A stretch of DNA of 64,000 nt from an uncultured Candidatus Saccharibacteria bacterium (GTDB lineage: Bacteria; Patescibacteriota; Minisyncoccia; Phycocordibacterales; PALSA-1337): positions 4,447 through 68,446 of the forward strand of contig CAYIYK010000002.1 of NCBI GenBank assembly GCA_964367745.1. Direction: 5' to 3'. Below are positions 3,889 through 55,906 of the stretch, in pieces. The notes beneath the pieces were generated by a model. The model saw nothing but the letters and a program-made list of their open reading frames with translations, searched no databases and was not told the DNA's origin. The position numbers were made by a program, and so were the translations under genes. Every line of letters starts with the position of its first letter. The first letter of the stretch is position 1.

Positions 3889-4004
3889 CATTAAATTTAA
3901 ATTAATTAATAATAGACAAATAATAATCCAATCCAATAAATTCCATTTAAAATAAAAATGAAATCTAAATGAAATTTTTATTAAAATTTCATTTATTAGA
4001 TAAT

Positions 4005-49680: not shown

Positions 49681-50127
49681 ATGAATCCCAAAATTGATCA
49701 TCTGATTAGGACTTACCCTAACCTAATTAGAGACATTGCAGATGCGATACCTGGACTTGGATTAAGCATGTATCCAAGGAGACAAGATGTTGGTCATAGG
49801 TTTGTGCACAGTGTAGGTAATATGCGCAAACTCGTAGTTTTTATGACCACAATGTCATATGACCGAAACGGCTGGTATAACGTCATTAATGATATCCAAA
49901 AAGCTGGAATCTATACCGATGTAACTCCGGTAATGAACCCCTACGATGCCGGTGCGGTTTGTGAGGACAAGAGTTACAAAATCGCTATCTGCACTCCAGA
50001 GGAGAAGGAGATTCTCCTCAAGAACGGTTGGGCGATTGGTAATATCATCGTTTCCGTACCCAACATGGACAAAGCAACAGCTCTGAAAGGACTCGTTCGA
50101 GCCTGGATCGCGACCTGGATCAAGTAA
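49681..50127 (+). CDS. Hypothetical protein, GC-rich
   Basis: ORF bracketed by a promoter and a strong terminator. Confidence 0.5.
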   Translation: MNPKIDHLIRTYPNLIRDIADAIPGLGLSMYPRRQDVGHRFVHSVGNMRKLVVFMTTMSYDRNGWYNVINDIQKAGIYTDVTPVMNPYDAGAVCEDKSYKIAICTPEEKEILLKNGWAIGNIIVSVPNMDKATALKGLVRAWIATWIK

Positions 50128-50145: not shown

Positions 50146-50178
50146 CCGCTAGTCACTTGTGACTGGCGGTTTCTTTTT
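50146..50178 (+). terminator. Rho-independent terminator
   Basis: ccgctagtcac-ttg-tgactggcgg followed by TTTCTTTTT. Confidence 0.75.
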
Positions 50179-50551
50179 ATATATTATTTTTTGTCTCCAA
50201 CAAGTCTAACCTATTCTCACATCTACTTACTTTTTCTTGAATCATAAATACACCGTCTTTATATACCAACATTTCATCTATAAAACCCTGTTTCATAGCA
50301 GACATATATCTTTCTGATTCTTTTCTATAGTATTCCTTTGCTCCTTCAAAAGTAATAGTCATGATTTCATACATCATAGATCTGGTTTCACTTAATATTT
50401 CTCCCTTAAGAGAGATTAAGGCACCTCTAAGATATTCTTTTGTAACAAAATTAGACATGAGATAATCTTTTGTGACAAAATTAGACAATTCTTCTCTAAG
50501 AATTTTCCTTGTAACTATTTCATCATCACTATTTGTAACTTTTTTCTTCAC
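50177..50551 (-). CDS. Hypothetical coiled-coil protein with an internal repeat (LSNFVTKDYL / MSNFVTKEYL); apparent GTG start
   Basis: The ORF-track start codon is GTG (forward cac at 50549-50551). Confidence 0.35.
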   Translation of the reverse strand: MKKKVTNSDDEIVTRKILREELSNFVTKDYLMSNFVTKEYLRGALISLKGEILSETRSMMYEIMTITFEGAKEYYRKESERYMSAMKQGFIDEMLVYKDGVFMIQEKVSRCENRLDLLETKNNI

Positions 50552-50635
50552 AATACCATTCTATTTAAAATAAAAAATTATAGCAATACAAAAAATGATA
50601 AAAATTTTATCAAAATTTCATAACTCTGTGGATAA

Positions 50636-50686: not shown

Positions 50687-51001
50687 TCAAGCGGATAAAC
50701 TTGTCATGTGATGAAAGTTTCCCCTTGAAGACCGTCTTTTGGAATCAATTATTTTTCTTAACTCTTCTGGATGTCTTTTAAGGAACGACGCCTTGGCATA
50801 TTTTCTATCTCTCTTTTTTTTCAGATACTCATCGAGTGTAATCCATCCCTTTTCTTCACCCATAATGTAATATCTCATTTCTACAAAATCACCTTCTTTC
50901 CAAATCCACCCAACAGAACCATTACTCGGGGTTTTTTTGAAGATCGGTCCATTTTTCGAACTAAGTACTATAATTTCAGTATTCATACAATACCAATCCA
51001 T
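50687..51001 (-). CDS. Hypothetical protein (start adjusted to MDWYC; the upstream hairpin abuts the ORF-track start)
   Basis: ORF; the tktC terminator hairpin at 51037-51060 is directly adjacent to the annotated ATG at 51031. Confidence 0.35.
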   Translation of the reverse strand: MDWYCMNTEIIVLSSKNGPIFKKTPSNGSVGWIWKEGDFVEMRYYIMGEEKGWITLDEYLKKKRDRKYAKASFLKRHPEELRKIIDSKRRSSRGNFHHMTSLSA

Positions 51002-51036
51002 TTTTTTATTTGTGCTGTTTTGTACATACAAAACAA

Positions 51037-51066
51037 GAGCTCTGGGTTGTTCCAGAGCTCGTATTT
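51037..51066 (-). terminator. Terminator of tktC
   Basis: gagctctgg-gttgtt-ccagagctc followed on the minus strand by TTGTTTTGT. Confidence 0.65.
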
Positions 51067-51186: not shown

Positions 51187-52200
51187 TTATTTCTTTCGCA
51201 ATACCACCCTCTTCACAGCCTCGCGTATATGACTTTCACCCATTTCATAATGTTCAATCAACTCTTCAGGTGTACCCGATTGGCCAAATTTATCTTTTAC
51301 TCCAATGAATTCTATAGGTGCTGGATAATGCTTTGCTAAACATTCAGAAACAGCTGATCCCATACCTCCTGCAATCTGATGCTCTTCAACTGTAACTATT
51401 GCACCAGTCTCATGTGCCAATCTCCACACTGCTTCTTCATCCAATGGCTTTATTGTACTTAAATTTAGAACTTTTACTCTCAAGCCCAATTTCTCTCCTT
51501 CTTTTTCAAAATTTTCCGCAACTTTCAAAGCTTTATAGACAAGTGAACCAGTAACAATTATTCCGACATCGGCCTTTTTATCTCCTTTTGGAGAAAAAAG
51601 TAATTGCGCTTTACCTATTTCAAATGGACTATCTTCTGTAGTTATAACTGGAGTTTTTTCTCTAGCGAGTCTTATATATGTTGGAAACTTTGTTTTTGCA
51701 CAAGCTAACGTCGCTTTCTTTGCTTCTATAGAATCACAAGGTGAGATAACTATCATGTTTGGTATAACACGAGTTATTGCTAAATCCTCAATTGCTTGAT
51801 GAGTTCCTCCGTCTGGGCCAACAGAAATTCCAGCGTGTGAACCAGCTATCTTAACTGGTCGATCGTTGTAACATATTGTAGTACGTATTTGCTCCCAATT
51901 TCTTCCTGGACTAAACATTGCATAAGAAGTCATAAAAGGGATTTTACCCATCGCAGCCATACCTGAAGCAACACTAGCAAGGTTTTGTTCTGCGACACCG
52001 ATCTCTACGAATCTATCTGGGAATTTTTGTTTAAATAGATTCATATATGTTGAATCAGTAAGATCAGCACAAAGACCAACCACGTTTTTATCCAATTCAG
52101 CAGATTTCAAAAGTCCTTCTCCAAATCCTTTACGTATAGGAACTTGCTCAACATCTTTATCGAAAAGTTTTGGATTTAATTTTTGAATTGGATTTATCAT
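51187..52200 (-). CDS. tktC: Transketolase, C-terminal (pyrimidine-binding) subunit
   Basis: FVEIGVAEQNLASVASGMAAMGKIPF...AGSHAGISVGPDGGTHQAIEDLAITRVIPNMIV. Confidence 0.85.
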   Translation of the reverse strand: MINPIQKLNPKLFDKDVEQVPIRKGFGEGLLKSAELDKNVVGLCADLTDSTYMNLFKQKFPDRFVEIGVAEQNLASVASGMAAMGKIPFMTSYAMFSPGRNWEQIRTTICYNDRPVKIAGSHAGISVGPDGGTHQAIEDLAITRVIPNMIVISPCDSIEAKKATLACAKTKFPTYIRLAREKTPVITTEDSPFEIGKAQLLFSPKGDKKADVGIIVTGSLVYKALKVAENFEKEGEKLGLRVKVLNLSTIKPLDEEAVWRLAHETGAIVTVEEHQIAGGMGSAVSECLAKHYPAPIEFIGVKDKFGQSGTPEELIEHYEMGESHIREAVKRVVLRKK

Positions 52201-52664
52201 AAATAATAAATTAAAATAATAGAAAAAAATAAGAAAGATGAAATTCCAAAAACAAAAAATGTCAAAGTGATCAGATTTAATAAATTGATAATTTTCTCTA
52301 AGTAACTATTTTTACTTTTTTCAACAGAGATATTATATTCTTTAACACTGACGTCGGGTTGCCTAATCATACTATTAAGATCCTCAAAAAGATATTTATT
52401 ATTTAACCTACTTAAATAATAATTTATCGCCTCAAATACGATTGTTATTGAAAGAAATAACCAAGTAATTATTAATAATCTTTTTGAACACTCGGCAACA
52501 AGGTAAGGTTTAGCTAAAAAAAGAGTCACCGATACCCCTATTACACCAGTAGACACATTTAAAATAAGTTTTGATAATTGACTATCTGAATATTTCATAA
52601 TATCAATACACCTAACCTGCTGATCTTTCATAAATTGTTTTAAATTGTAATCTTGATCTAGCAT
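52197..52664 (-). CDS. Hypothetical membrane protein (3-4 TM)
   Basis: Hydrophobic ORF overlapping the tktC start. Confidence 0.45.
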   Translation of the reverse strand: MLDQDYNLKQFMKDQQVRCIDIMKYSDSQLSKLILNVSTGVIGVSVTLFLAKPYLVAECSKRLLIITWLFLSITIVFEAINYYLSRLNNKYLFEDLNSMIRQPDVSVKEYNISVEKSKNSYLEKIINLLNLITLTFFVFGISSFLFFSIILIYYL

Positions 52665-52670
52665 ATAATT

Positions 52671-52961
52671 TTAACTAAACAAAAATACAAATATAGAAAA
52701 TGAGCATAGTAATACTCCTTCTATTCTTCTTATCACTATTTCTCTTTTTGATAATTCATAACCATAACTCTGCTTTTTATTAAAAAACAAAAAAATTCCA
52801 AGGACAGCACATACCAAAAGATACGATATTAAAAAAGGATAAGGTACTGTTTCAGCTTTAATAGAATAAATAGATCCGAATAAGAATAAAATTTTAAGAA
52901 CTATTTCAAATATCTTCATGCTGTAATTATACCCTATTTTTAAGAAACTTTTTACCTTCAA
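52671..52961 (-). CDS. Hypothetical small membrane protein
   Basis: Hydrophobic ORF. Confidence 0.4.
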   Translation of the reverse strand: MKVKSFLKIGYNYSMKIFEIVLKILFLFGSIYSIKAETVPYPFLISYLLVCAVLGIFLFFNKKQSYGYELSKREIVIRRIEGVLLCSFSIFVFLFS

Positions 52962-53763
52962 CCTTTAATCTCCTATCAACTTTTTTAATATCCTCTTCAG
53001 CCGGCAGAGCTTCCGGTCTAATTCCACTTTTACCCAATAACTCTCTTACATTTTTATTATTCTTAACATGCTCATTTATAATCGGATTCTCTCCTCGAAT
53101 ATATGCGTCCCGCTTGAGAGTAAAGTTTGTAATTTCATTTGCCATGTCTTTAGCTTTTACAGTTATTGCTGGTAAAAAATCAGCAAGGGCTCTTGAGGTA
53201 GGAACATTTAATTTCTTCTTCATATCTAAGGTCGTCTTACCTCCAAACAAAGCCTCATCTCCTTTACTTCTAATTTTAGCAAAACCTATACTATCCACAC
53301 CCCTCTCATATAATATTCCTGAAAGTTCTTTTTCGGAATTTGAGAGTTTCTCGCGAAAAACTAATCTTTCAATCTCAGACAACCTTTTCTCCACTAATTC
53401 TTGCTTGCGAGTTTGAATTGCAAAGTAAGCCATTGCAAAAGCTATTGGTTCTTTGCTTGGATCTCCATTTTGGGCAATTAGGTAACAAGCATGCCGGGTT
53501 AGTGCGTAATCATTAATAGTCATTTTTGAACCTTTGCCACCGGTGATGCCTTTGCTGACGTCAGCAAAGTGATCAGTGGTAACAAGTCCTGTCTTATCAC
53601 ATGCTATTTTAGCTTTATCTATGACCTTTTGAAAATTCCTCCACTGATCATACCCCAGTAATCCTTGCAAATCTCTCGCAAACCAAAACTCTAAACCATC
53701 TTCTGTTTTATGTACATAATCATTAAAACTCTTATGTAGACTTTTTACTATTTCTTGTTTCAT
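52927..53763 (-). CDS. dinD: DNA-damage-inducible protein D (DinD) / RhuM-family (Bro-N-like) protein
   Basis: EFWFARDLQGLLGYDQWRNFQKVIDKAKIAC aligns with E. coli DinD EFWSARELAPLLDYRDWRNFQKVLARATQAC. Also ...LTRHACYLIAQNGDPSKEPIAFAMAYFAIQTRKQEL matches ...[36 protein letters not shown]. Confidence 0.75.
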   Translation of the reverse strand: MKQEIVKSLHKSFNDYVHKTEDGLEFWFARDLQGLLGYDQWRNFQKVIDKAKIACDKTGLVTTDHFADVSKGITGGKGSKMTINDYALTRHACYLIAQNGDPSKEPIAFAMAYFAIQTRKQELVEKRLSEIERLVFREKLSNSEKELSGILYERGVDSIGFAKIRSKGDEALFGGKTTLDMKKKLNVPTSRALADFLPAITVKAKDMANEITNFTLKRDAYIRGENPIINEHVKNNKNVRELLGKSGIRPEALPAEEDIKKVDRRLKVEGKKFLKNRV

Positions 53764-53888
53764 TTATTTTTATTTGTTAGTTAATAAAATCTATCAGCTA
53801 ACATTAACAAAATAAAAATATGAGTAAAGTGGAAAACAAAAAAGGCGATTTTATCAAAATTTCACACTAAATATAGTCTAATTTAAAA

Positions 53889-54746
53889 TTATTTAATTTT
53901 AACCCCAAAAGCATTCGTCGCTATTTCTATCTCTTCCGGTGTTGTCGGTGGTTTGCCATGCCATTCATATTTTCTTTCGAATTCCCGAATTCCTTTTGAA
54001 GATATTGTATTTGCTATAATCACCGATGGTTTATCAAACACCGCTTGAGCTTGTCCCCAAGCTGCATCAATATCTCTGAAGTTATGTCCATCAACTTCTT
54101 GTACATGCCAGTTGAAAGCTCTCCATTTATCTCCTAGAGGATTTAAAGGCATTATATCTTCTGTAAAACCGTCTATCTGAATATTATTTCTATCAACTAT
54201 CACTGTTAGATTCTGTATTTTCTCTTTGCCAGCGAGCATTATCGCTTCCCAATTTTGTCCTTCATTCAGTTCCCCATCTCCAAGAAGGCAGATAAATTGT
54301 TTTCCGGATGTCTTTCCAAGATTCATTTTTTCAGCTAAAGCCATACCTACAGCTTGAGATAGTCCTGAACCAAGGGGTCCAGAAGAATTCTCAAGCATTG
54401 GCAAATATTCACGATGTGGATGTCCCTGTAAACGACTTCCGAATTTTCTTAAAGTATTTAATTCTGATACTGGGAAATATCCTGCATGAGCCATAGTTGC
54501 ATATAGTACTGGACATATATGCCCATTTGAAAGTATCAATCTATCCCTATATTCCCAATTCGGTTTCTTTGGATCATGTCTCATTGCATGAAAAAATAGA
54601 TAGGTAAAAATATCTGCCATATCTAGAGGTCCAGCAGTATGACCGGACTTAGCATGTATGAGCATTTCTATTATCGAACCTCTTATTGCATAAGCTTTTT
54701 CAAAAAGAAATTTGGCTTTTTCATCTGTTAAAGGTTGAACTGGCAT
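53889..54746 (-). CDS. tktN: Transketolase, N-terminal (TPP-binding) subunit
   Basis: GHTAGPL...GSRLQGHPH...GPLGSGLSQAVGMA...GDGELNEGQNWEA. Confidence 0.85.
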   Translation of the reverse strand: MPVQPLTDEKAKFLFEKAYAIRGSIIEMLIHAKSGHTAGPLDMADIFTYLFFHAMRHDPKKPNWEYRDRLILSNGHICPVLYATMAHAGYFPVSELNTLRKFGSRLQGHPHREYLPMLENSSGPLGSGLSQAVGMALAEKMNLGKTSGKQFICLLGDGELNEGQNWEAIMLAGKEKIQNLTVIVDRNNIQIDGFTEDIMPLNPLGDKWRAFNWHVQEVDGHNFRDIDAAWGQAQAVFDKPSVIIANTISSKGIREFERKYEWHGKPPTTPEEIEIATNAFGVKIK

Positions 54747-54765: not shown

Positions 54766-55452
54766 TTAAATCCCCCTAAACTCTTCTAGTGTATCCACAA
54801 TATCTTCAAGAGAATTGTTTCCAAACAAAGCAGAGCCAACAGCTAGACTATCAGCACCTGATTCTTTTAATATATCTGCATTATCTAGACTTACTCCACC
54901 ATCTACTTGTACTTTCAAATCGGGATATAATTTTTTAATTTCTTTTACTTTATTTATAGTGCTATCTTCAAATTTCTGACCTTGAAAACCAGGTTTTCTA
55001 ATGCCCATAACTTGAACAAAATCTATTTTATCAATATATTTCTTCAAATCATCCACATTCCCTAGATTACCAATTGCTATACCAATCTCTACCAAACCTT
55101 TTAAAACATCGATGACAGGATTTAGATCTTTTGATGATTCCAAATGTAGAATTATTTTTGTTGCACCTGCAGAAAGCCATTTGCGAGCATCATCCTCACT
55201 TGGATCCTTTATCATCAAATCAAATTCATAATCTATTCTCTCCCACTCAGGCATACCTCTAACTTCTTTTAAAATTGCTTCGAAATTTTCATCAGGTTTA
55301 ATATCCGCTTTCCAATATGGCCAAGTAATAGTTGGTACATATTTACCATCACAAATATCGATCTGAACTTTATCAGAAAAGTCTTTAATCAAATCTATCT
55401 TCTCTTCAATTTCTTTAAAATTTTTCGGTAGTATTGCTGGTATTATTTCCAT
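54766..55452 (-). CDS. rpe: Ribulose-phosphate 3-epimerase
   Basis: IIPAILPKNF...QIDICDGKYVP...MGIRKPGFQGQKF...VQVDGGVS. Confidence 0.85.
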   Translation of the reverse strand: MEIIPAILPKNFKEIEEKIDLIKDFSDKVQIDICDGKYVPTITWPYWKADIKPDENFEAILKEVRGMPEWERIDYEFDLMIKDPSEDDARKWLSAGATKIILHLESSKDLNPVIDVLKGLVEIGIAIGNLGNVDDLKKYIDKIDFVQVMGIRKPGFQGQKFEDSTINKVKEIKKLYPDLKVQVDGGVSLDNADILKESGADSLAVGSALFGNNSLEDIVDTLEEFRGI

Positions 55453-55456
55453 AAAA

Positions 55457-55906
55457 TTATTCTATAGTGTCTAACATTTCATTTCTTAAAACATGTCTTT
55501 TATCATTACTAAATGGTGTCGATATCCAAAATCTTATTGCTTCTTTTGCTTCTTCAAATCCTACAAAACCTGCACCTATAGATAGTATATTTGAATCATT
55601 GTGTTCTCTAGCTAGTCTTATTATCTCCAAGTCTTGACCATAATAGACTATAGCTCTAGCTCCAGGAAGACGGTTACATATTATTGCTTCACCTTGTCCA
55701 GACTTTCCAAAAACTATTGCATGGGTATTGGTTGGATCACTAATCACTCTCATAGCGGCAGGAAGGATGAGTTCTGGATAATTATCACCTTCTTCATAGA
55801 CATGAGCTCCCAAATCTTCAACTTCAAAACCTTCTTGATTCAAAAAATCTTTTATTTTATTTTTCAATTCAAATCCAGCATGATCACTAGCCAATATTAT
55901 TTTCAT
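55457..55906 (-). CDS. rpiB: Ribose-5-phosphate isomerase B
   Basis: MKIILASDHAGFELKNKIKDFL; RpiB/LacAB family. Confidence 0.9.
   Translation of the reverse strand: MKIILASDHAGFELKNKIKDFLNQEGFEVEDLGAHVYEEGDNYPELILPAAMRVISDPTNTHAIVFGKSGQGEAIICNRLPGARAIVYYGQDLEIIRLAREHNDSNILSIGAGFVGFEEAKEAIRFWISTPFSNDKRHVLRNEMLDTIE

Follow-up and report, generated by a model that had tools for sequence, protein, structure and literature searches.

The interruption between the two transketolase genes in the pentose-phosphate operon of an uncultured Candidatus Saccharibacteria bacterium is most probably a composite of three independent layers and not a single module, as judged from gene content and order in related loci. 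The window analysed here is a stretch of 64,000 nucleotides, and the genes and other annotated features described below lie on its minus strand. The first layer is mp82, an old resident of the tktN-tktC junction held under purifying selection in one clade of Patescibacteria (Paceibacteria). The second is mp155, a young orphan gene that the lineage of the window and its relative L083 has gained between mp82 and tktC. The third is the position just downstream of tktN, a variable cargo slot that in the window holds a single gene, dinD. The adjacency of these genes in one operon had suggested a defence system made of a sensor and membrane effectors; comparison with close relatives yields three unrelated layers instead.

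The genes are ordered rpiB-rpe-tktN-(dinD, mp82, mp155)-tktC, and the open reading frames are real. The first gene of the cluster is rpiB (55457..55906), encoding ribose-5-phosphate isomerase B (Pfam LacAB_rpiB, E 5e-34) and syntenic in relatives, followed by rpe (54766..55452) for ribulose-phosphate 3-epimerase (Pfam Ribul_P_3_epim, E 5e-30). The N-terminal, TPP-binding half of a split transketolase is encoded by tktN (53889..54746; Pfam Transketolase_N, E 8e-58) and the C-terminal half by tktC (51187..52200; Pfam Transket_pyr and Transketolase_C). Despite the interruption both halves are intact and full length, as seen from their Pfam domains and from alignments with relatives that cover query positions 1-285 and 1-337. 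The tktN product is 81-83% identical to those of L003, L004, L006 and L007 and 95% identical to that of L133, with a dN/dS of 0.04 against L083, and tktC is 98% identical to its counterpart in L133. Gene calls and Pfam matches bear out the interrupted operon order given in the preliminary description. Its further statement that the two transketolase genes are normally adjacent applies mainly outside Patescibacteria. The genes are neighbours in the non-Patescibacteria loci and in several close relatives, while in about one third of Patescibacteria species representatives the two are separated by other sequence. This position shows a strong enrichment of small multi-TM genes across Patescibacteria.

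The three inserted genes are contiguous, tightly spaced and in the same orientation. A pattern scan found no terminator between tktN and tktC; the sole terminator-like site outside genes on this strand from tktN to the end of the cluster is a putative hairpin at 51037..51060, a consensus match only, located 127 nt beyond the tktC stop. Two further sites, at 54043-54062 and 54835-54855, are inside tktN and rpe, respectively. Promoter-like matches in the scan did not exceed the shuffled expectation. Because an internal terminator is absent, coupling of the insert to operon expression is plausible, and transcription would probably proceed by read-through of the operon and/or from a promoter in the 125-nt leader.

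The gene mp82 (52671..52919) encodes a conserved three-helix membrane protein of 82 aa, defined by family alignment, AF2 modelling and synteny. It had been read as 96 aa, a length that depends on a TTG start overlapping dinD; the ATG conserved in the family, at 52919, gives the shorter product. The family comprises 26 clusters with 52-88% identity and an invariant loop, NKKQSYGYELSKREIVIRKIEG, and has 44 representatives among 1.8 billion proteins. The AF2 model (pLDDT 91) consists of three helices, and the dN/dS is 0.13. The gene lies between tktN and tktC in L006, L073, L083, L085-L090 and L131-L139, where DinD is absent; the family occupied this site in each relative that was compared, and more than ten related lineages carry mp82 there without DinD. 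Its position is unchanged even among divergent members (profile E-values to 1e-10), and on a neighbour-joining tree of TktN and TktC all carriers form one clade. No match to mp82 was found in PADLOC or Pfam. A SemiSWEET or triple-helix-bundle transporter was considered and rejected, there being no Pfam MtN3 or PQ-loop match and a best Foldseek E-value against the PDB of 1.6, with SemiSWEET not among the matches. Other Patescibacteria also have small TM proteins at the tktN-tktC junction. Those of L006 and L073 proved to be genuine members of the mp82 family, and a homology search related none of the rest to mp82 or mp155.

Such linkage could also mean that mp82, and perhaps mp155, are partners of the split transketolase, serving as a membrane tether or in the handling of substrate or cofactor, with DinD an irrelevant passenger. 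The strict positional linkage of mp82 across divergent members and its strongly conserved cytoplasmic loop agree with this proposal, as does the finding that multi-TM genes account for 13 of the roughly 22 genes carried at the tktN-tktC junction in Patescibacteria, compared with 55 of 709 in the background (odds ratio 17, p 3e-9). However, four members nested within the mp82 clade have no mp82 and retain intact tkt genes, no homology links the remaining TM cargo proteins to one another, hydrophobic ORFs arise easily in AT-rich or T-rich inserts, and mp82 has neither a fold nor a family match. A role in transketolase function is thus conceivable for these proteins, if on balance unlikely. Whatever its function, this conserved family of 82-aa membrane proteins is confined to the tktN-tktC junction and offers a testable lead.

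The layered reading assigns mp155 (52197..52664) a more recent origin. This gene, whose stop overlaps the ATG of tktC, encodes a lineage-specific orphan membrane protein of 155 aa with two N-terminal TM segments, a soluble loop and a C-terminal TM region. The homolog search recovered a single relative, P0122 (84% identity), present in L083 and L084, and the dN/dS is 0.20. No Pfam family matches mp155, SLATT included. The PADLOC model PDLC00668, '2TM effector', matches it weakly (E 0.0018, 16 bits) and its ortholog similarly (E 0.0006); these scores of 16-18 bits fall on the TM segments and come from two orthologs that are not independent. An assignment as a CBASS-type 2TM effector has the PADLOC match in its favour, but Pfam does not support it and partner genes are absent; an effector-like role is conceivable for mp155.

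The cargo slot becomes visible when the window is aligned with its closest relatives. Homology between the window and L083 is lost at 53798 and returns at 52942, exactly around dinD, which delimits a swapped cassette (52943..53797; comparison with L083 and L133) made of 34 nt of cargo-specific upstream sequence and the dinD coding sequence. In L083, with the gene order tktN-Gp49-HTH-mp82-mp155-tktC, a 654-nt Gp49/HTH toxin-antitoxin pair takes the place of this cassette. L133, with 83-86% nucleotide identity, lacks window positions 52920-53885 (leader and dinD) as well as 52228-52680 (mp155), and holds mp82 alone between tktN and tktC. Further states of the slot occur in L135-L139, and those of the nearest relatives together are a Gp49 (HigB-like)/HTH pair, a 103-aa TM protein with or without an HTH gene, and nothing. 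Apart from the window, the identical short contigs L001 and L002 alone have dinD at the tktN-tktC site; among 80 genome loci, the gene was never seen between the tkt genes. Related genomes with an empty site, such as L133, identify dinD as an accessory insertion.

Both boundaries of the cassette carry conserved sequence. A 91-nt leader following the tktN stop (53798..53888) was identified by blastn and alignment with L083 and is absent from L133. It contains a 17-nt extended -10-like motif, TGATAAAAT, at 53848-53864, which recurs upstream of orf124 at 50604-50620; the leader may function as a promoter. As a candidate for a recurrent recombination site it was rejected, since no loci other than the window, L001, L002 and L083 were seen to carry it. 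The other boundary is the conserved junction 'ATAGGGTATAATTACAGC' (the GGTATAAT junction, 52920..52942), shared with L083, L135 and L136. It directly precedes the mp82 ATG and contains TATAAT. The final codons of dinD and its stop lie within this junction, and in these three loci other cargo ORFs likewise end there; a promoter role may be proposed for it as well. Apart from chance-level AT-rich matches, no repeats and no att-like sites flank the insert, the tktN-tktC interval contains no recombinase ORF, no integrase was found, and there is no tRNA gene near the insert, the only one being 11 kb away. The flanks of the cassette thus carry no hallmarks of mobility, and the swap presumably took place by homologous recombination on the shared flanks.

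These comparisons bear directly on the proposal, made in the preliminary description, that the three genes form one insert resembling an abortive-infection or effector system. Spelled out, such a horizontally acquired module would use DinD as the sensor of phage or DNA damage, with cell killing left to the two membrane proteins. The tight, co-oriented arrangement with no internal terminator, the similarity of DinD to the defence candidate PDC-S13 and the weak 2TM-effector matches of mp155 and its ortholog are what such a module might display. The insert nevertheless falls apart on comparison, since mp82 is resident at the same site in DinD-less relatives, mp155 adjoins a toxin-antitoxin pair and not DinD in L083, and L133 retains only mp82. 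Nor is the pairing seen elsewhere: homologs of mp82 or mp155 adjoin dinD in none of 40 other DinD loci, so that no co-occurrence of sensor and membrane effector across genomes is observed, and the membrane proteins are genes unrelated to their neighbour. Comparative genomics largely refutes a three-gene module, which is now hardly credible. From adjacency and probable co-transcription, a functional interaction of DinD with the membrane proteins in the window strain could still be imagined.

The cargo gene of the window, dinD (52927..53763), encodes a 278-aa homolog of DNA damage-inducible protein D. It matches the NCBIfam equivalog model NF008573, 'DNA damage-inducible protein D', with 327.7 bits (E 6e-98; curated cut-off 242 bits), the alignment spanning residues 1-276 of 278 and profile positions 1-283 of 288. 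A Bro-N domain (Pfam PF02498) is located at residues 21-105 (40.5 bits, E 4e-10; cut-off 25.6), and the PADLOC PDC-S13 model PDLC04919 matches with an E-value of 1.3e-106 (1-276 of 281). The protein had been described as a DinD/RhuM homolog. The first half of this name stands; since the Pfam model PF13310 (Virulence_RhuM) does not match at E <= 0.01, the protein is DinD and not 'DinD/RhuM'. The AF2 model, of moderate confidence (pLDDT 79), predicts a Bro-N winged-helix N-terminal domain, a long helix and a C-terminal helical bundle.

More than 8000 DinD homologs were found, and the family is very common and highly conserved in Patescibacteria, with 65-78% identity across candidate phyla. The GC content of dinD, about 0.36, equals the genome background, and composition therefore gives no mark of foreign origin; GC content was discarded as such a marker, the dip to 0.25 covering the membrane genes and not dinD. 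Prevalence, conservation and matching GC content would all suit an ancestral housekeeping DNA-repair gene of the operon that was lost from relatives and never inserted. Occupancy of the site in only the window and two identical contigs argues against this history, as do the other cargo or empty slots with clean boundaries in the nearest relatives and the unrelated contexts in which the closest DinD sequences (75-77% identity) reside. Ancestral presence of dinD is accordingly very unlikely.

At other loci, DinD homologs stand alone, lie within type I restriction-modification operons, adjoin ABC-transporter genes or belong to prophages; 254 phage or satellite records contain them. Neighbours vary across the 40 other loci and include HsdM/HsdS, KilA-N proteins and ABC ATPases. 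The association of the family with defence and phage contexts noted earlier is confirmed by the PDC-S13 match and by homologs inside hsdM-hsdS operons, in prophages and in satellites. A CDS with a dinD domain has been reported within a type I restriction-modification operon (PMC9881135), and our literature search on PDC-S13 or DinD in defence returned nothing specific beyond it. The homologs inside restriction-modification operons and prophages suggest that DinD is kept as conflict-associated cargo. The dinD gene described here is most likely single-gene cargo of this kind, occupying a variable slot within the pentose-phosphate operon of a Patescibacteria genome, and a defence role may be supposed for its product.

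DinD could alternatively be neither a RecA modulator nor a defence protein, acting as a transcription regulator or antirepressor-like DNA binder of mp82, mp155, tktC or a resident mobile element. Its Bro-N winged-helix domain, the annotation of its viral structural neighbours as regulatory, antirepressor or KilA-N proteins and the location of dinD directly upstream of the TATAAT-containing junction are in keeping with such a function. Set against these are the expression of mp82 and tktC in relatives that have no DinD and the occurrence of DinD homologs in many unrelated operons, which speaks against a role specific to this locus; a regulator is improbable. Under the preferred reading, DinD is a stand-alone, horizontally mobile Bro-N protein that would most likely act alone on DNA or recombination intermediates. 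Reading by eye recognised no LexA-type operator upstream of dinD: neither a CTGT-N8-ACAG nor a GAAC-N4-GTTC box was seen in the 125-nt leader, which has only a degenerate GTTAATGTT...ATTAAC inverted repeat. The perfect form, ATGTTTTNC-N-GNAAAACAT, precedes dinD in L112, L114, L116, L126 and L128, and a palindrome, ATGTTTTCC-N8-GGAAAACAT, is located upstream of dinD in other lineages.

A broader interpretation, which we hold to be doubtful while deserving mention, would combine several of these elements. The tktN-tktC junction would preferentially house small multi-pass membrane proteins, the strictly junction-linked mp82 included, that work together with the split transketolase, perhaps as a membrane tether or in the handling of substrate or cofactor; the slot upstream of mp82 would exchange conflict genes, DinD and HigB-like toxin-antitoxin pairs among them, under operon read-through; and DinD and the DdrC proteins of Deinococcus would make up one widespread superfamily of damage-responsive DNA binders.

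The locus can be compared with several known systems. Alternative defence or toxin-antitoxin systems are found at variable 'hot spots' flanked by conserved core genes. The slot resembles these in that close relatives with the same flanks differ in their cargo (DinD, Gp49/HTH, a TM protein with or without HTH, nothing). Unlike them, it is located within an operon, where it separates the two half-genes of a single enzyme, and its cargo is limited to one or two small genes with no integrase or repeats. In the streamlined Patescibacteria, a core metabolic operon can thus host a variable slot with near-identical flanks, which may be useful for finding accessory or conflict genes in genomes that have no classical islands.

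The single-gene candidate PDC-S13 of PADLOC is related to the window protein by the whole-protein HMM match and by homologs within type I restriction-modification operons. It is, however, a prediction from defence-island association, and no other defence genes adjoin dinD in the window; the name PDC-S13 was not mentioned in the literature searched, and we know of no defence phenotype for it. Proteins combining dinD and RhuM (PF13310) domains in type I restriction-modification operons appear in the literature, while the window protein fails the Pfam RhuM model. Phage antirepressor-type proteins of the Bro-N/KilA-N kind have the Bro-N domain in common with DinD, and Foldseek matches of the DinD model to viral KilA-N, antirepressor and 'regulatory protein' models have E-values of 2e-9 to 1e-3; the C-terminal domain and the overall family (DinD) differ, and the window provides no prophage context.

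In E. coli, dinD is a stand-alone, LexA-regulated SOS gene. Its product (NF008573 / PRK11525) is likened to the window protein by the full-length match above the equivalog cut-off and the same Bro-N N-terminal domain, whereas the window gene is strain-specific cargo inside a Patescibacteria pentose-phosphate operon. E. coli DinD inhibits post-synaptic RecA filaments (Uranga et al. 2011, as cited in PMC4849656), an activity known for that protein only.

The predicted fold of DinD also resembles that of the damage-induced DNA binder DdrC of Deinococcus radiodurans (PDB 7qvb, 7udi, 8u0g), with a shared predicted N-terminal winged helix, long connecting helix and C-terminal helical bundle; both families are named after DNA-damage induction. 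Foldseek aligned the DinD model with DdrC over about 240 columns (E 1.5e-6, probability 1.0), at TM-scores of 0.38-0.47 and 15-16% identity. The HMM search gave no match between the two, and the likeness, seen with a predicted model, is structural only. DdrC differs in being a domain-swapped dimer, and it has been described as Deinococcus-specific and without structural homologues. The structural link between DinD and DdrC could guide biochemical tests of the widespread, poorly understood DinD family.

In the window, the pentose-phosphate genes lie on the minus strand in the order rpiB (55457-55906), rpe (54766-55452), tktN (53889-54746) and tktC (51187-52200), the last two encoding the halves of a split transketolase; Pfam searches confirmed the four enzyme identities and showed both halves to be full length. 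The relatives of tktN are Patescibacteria (Paceibacteria/Taylorbacteria-like MAGs). Three genes of the same strand separate the halves: the 278-aa dinD (52927-53763), recognised by NCBIfam, Pfam and PADLOC, and two small hydrophobic ORFs, mp82 (52671-52919), delimited by family alignment, and the 155-aa mp155 (52197-52664). A 125-nt AT-rich leader lies between tktN and dinD, the next spacings are 7 nt (dinD to mp82) and 6 nt (mp82 to mp155), and the mp155 stop overlaps the tktC ATG. Pattern scanning found a putative terminator-like hairpin at 51037-51060, 127 nt past tktC, which is the sole such site on the minus strand from tktN to the cluster end, while promoter-like matches were no more numerous than expected in shuffled sequence. 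The GC minimum (about 0.25) covers mp82 and mp155 and not dinD, which is at background level (about 0.36).

The preliminary description regarded these genes as a single abortive-infection-like insert between normally adjacent tkt genes; the arrangement was partly confirmed, the interpretation not supported. The tkt genes are indeed adjacent in related loci L003 and L007, but the three genes differ in distribution and are not one insert. The position just downstream of tktN, occupied in the window by the leader and dinD and followed by mp82, mp155 and tktC, is a variable slot. In L083 (85-87% nucleotide identity to the window) tktN is followed by Gp49, HTH_XRE, mp82, mp155 and tktC. Homology between the two ends at window position 53798 and restarts at 52942; therefore, an 855-nt dinD cassette is exchanged for a 654-nt toxin-antitoxin cassette with identical flanks. 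L133 (TktN 95%, TktC 98%; 83-86% nucleotide identity) contains only mp82 between the halves, lacking window positions 52920-53885 and 52228-52680. In L135 (TktN 85%, TktC 84%) the slot holds a gene for a 103-aa transmembrane (TM) protein, which in the equally similar L136-L139 is joined by an HTH gene 56% identical to that of L083. Gp49 (HigB-like)/HTH_XRE pairs, 48-51% identical, occur between tktN and tktC in two genomes (L004, 6941-7738; L083, 1549-2189), L004 having an extra 49-aa CxxC zinc-ribbon-like ORF and no mp82.

The mp82 gene is tied to the junction itself. Its previously described length of 96 aa corresponds to an ORF starting at a TTG overlapping dinD; alignment of 28 family members places the conserved start at the ATG at 52919, giving 82 aa. 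The product is predicted to be a three-helix membrane bundle (AlphaFold, pLDDT 91), in which the cytoplasmic loop NKKQSYGYELSKREIVIRKIEG hardly varies across the alignment (family pattern NKKQSYGYEL..R..IEG). The family (82-90 aa; 44 representatives among 1.8 billion proteins) has neither a Pfam nor a fold match. At every locus examined, including those of distant members (profile E 7e-14 and 1e-10), mp82 is located between tktN and tktC (L006, L073, L083, L085-L090, L131-L139), and none of these loci has DinD, whose place in L083 is taken by Gp49 and HTH_XRE. All carriers fall into one clade of a neighbour-joining tree of TktN+TktC; four nested members (L003, L004, L005 and L007) have no mp82, which suggests later losses. 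Relative to L083, dN/dS is 0.13 for mp82, 0.20 for mp155 and 0.04 for tktN, with purifying selection acting on both membrane genes. Directly 5' of the mp82 ATG, all occupied slots share the junction A(A/G)GGTATAATTA (window 52920-52942; L083 about 2200-2222; L135/L136 about 3980-4000), which provides the last codons and stop to three unrelated cargo genes, encoding DinD, the 103-aa TM protein and the HTH protein. It includes a TATAAT 8 nt before the ATG that could, judging by its position, act as a promoter, in which case the mp82 mRNA would be leaderless or nearly so.

In contrast to this family, mp155 is confined to the window, L083 and L084, with a single homologue (P0122, 84% identity) among 5.8 billion proteins and no Pfam family. 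Both mp155 and P0122 weakly match the PADLOC CBASS-type '2TM effector' model (E 0.0018 and 0.0006; 16-18 bits), the matched part being the two TM segments at the N-terminus, and there is neither a cyclase nor any other partner gene.

The interval between tktN and tktC is occupied in about one third of the species representatives of Patescibacteria, and the rpe/tktN junction is likewise variable. At least two TM segments were found in 13 of about 22 cargo genes, as compared to 55 of 709 (8%) neighbouring genes (odds ratio about 17, p about 3e-9, from hand counts and a statistic that ignores kinship). Small multi-TM genes occur there in L009, L016, L021, L023, L039, L043, L049, L056 and L073, with no homology between the cargo proteins. 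This excess reflects either a link to the split transketolase or hydrophobic ORFs arising from AT-rich inserts at a tolerant junction.

Downstream, orf124 (50177-50551, minus strand; 124 aa), located in the lowest-GC stretch nearby (about 0.28), matches nothing in Pfam or PADLOC, and none of the retrieved relatives has a homologue. It separates tktC from uvrB, which are adjacent in L003, so this interval is another variable spot. The flanking orf148 (49681-50127, plus strand) and orf114 (50687-51031, minus strand) have weak homologues in L085 and L089 (23-31% identity) that occupy corresponding positions, and are therefore lineage-conserved hypothetical genes. The GC content around orf148 is about 0.43, and a strong terminator-like hairpin (50146-50169) comes after this gene.

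The 278-aa protein, previously called a DinD/RhuM homologue, exceeds with 327.7 bits the cut-off (242) of the NCBIfam equivalog HMM for DNA damage-inducible protein D, contains a Bro-N domain (Pfam) and matches PADLOC candidate PDC-S13 (E 1e-106); since Pfam Virulence_RhuM gave no match, it is named DinD only. More than 8000 homologues were found, many of them 65-78% identical and in diverse Patescibacteria. Neighbours vary among 40 metagenomic DinD loci, none of which has mp82 or mp155 homologues, leaving a joint abortive-infection module unsupported. The closest DinDs (L092, L095) adjoin ABC-transporter ATPase genes; five loci (L101, L102, L104-L106) have the order hsdM-dinD-hsdS, with a KilA-N protein also in L102, and a published survey lists one dinD-domain CDS located between type I restriction-modification core genes (PMC9881135). 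Homologues also occur in 254 phage or satellite records, all below 60% identity. Judging by these varied neighbours and occurrences, DinD behaves as a solitary, mobile gene, frequently situated within operons and linked to conflict systems. It lies between tkt genes in none of 80 species-representative genomes. The dinD gene of the window is an unexceptional representative of a known family and strain-specific cargo in a variable slot.

A subgroup of loci with DinDs 56-60% identical carries a near-perfect palindrome, ATGTTTTNC-N-GNAAAACAT, 25-50 nt 5' of dinD (L112, 1781-1806; L114, 1787-1812; L126, 3951-3976; L128, 2738-2763; and L116, 3825-3850, 3951-3976 and 4898-4923). It looks like a putative repressor operator, and is kept in the window (about 53767-53795) only as a degenerate GTTAATGTT...ATTAAC. 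Transcription of dinD would proceed by operon read-through and/or from a leader promoter, the candidate being the TGATAAAAT motif at 53848-53864. This extended -10-like motif is part of a 17-mer, TGAAATTTTGATAAAAT, repeated identically at 50604-50620, 53 nt 5' of orf124, both copies being on the minus strand.

DinD most likely acts by itself on DNA or recombination intermediates, and mp82 and mp155 would not be its effectors. Biochemistry is limited to the E. coli protein, an inhibitor of post-synaptic RecA filaments (Uranga et al. 2011, cited in PMC4849656). The AlphaFold model (pLDDT 79) comprises a Bro-N winged-helix domain, a helix of about 50 residues and a helical C-domain; the viral proteins nearest to it in structure are of the KilA-N, antirepressor and 'regulatory' types. 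The variable slot, the junction-linked mp82 family and a structural resemblance of DinD to DdrC are of modest interest. Deinococcus radiodurans DdrC, a damage-induced dimeric protein that binds and compacts DNA, was published as Deinococcus-specific and without structural homologues (PMC9303277), and a literature search found no paper linking it with DinD. It gave the only full-length Foldseek matches (E 1.5e-6, probability 1.0, identity 15-16%, TM-score 0.38-0.47). The resemblance is between the predicted fold of DinD and full-length DdrC; a profile search at the HMM level left the two families unconnected.
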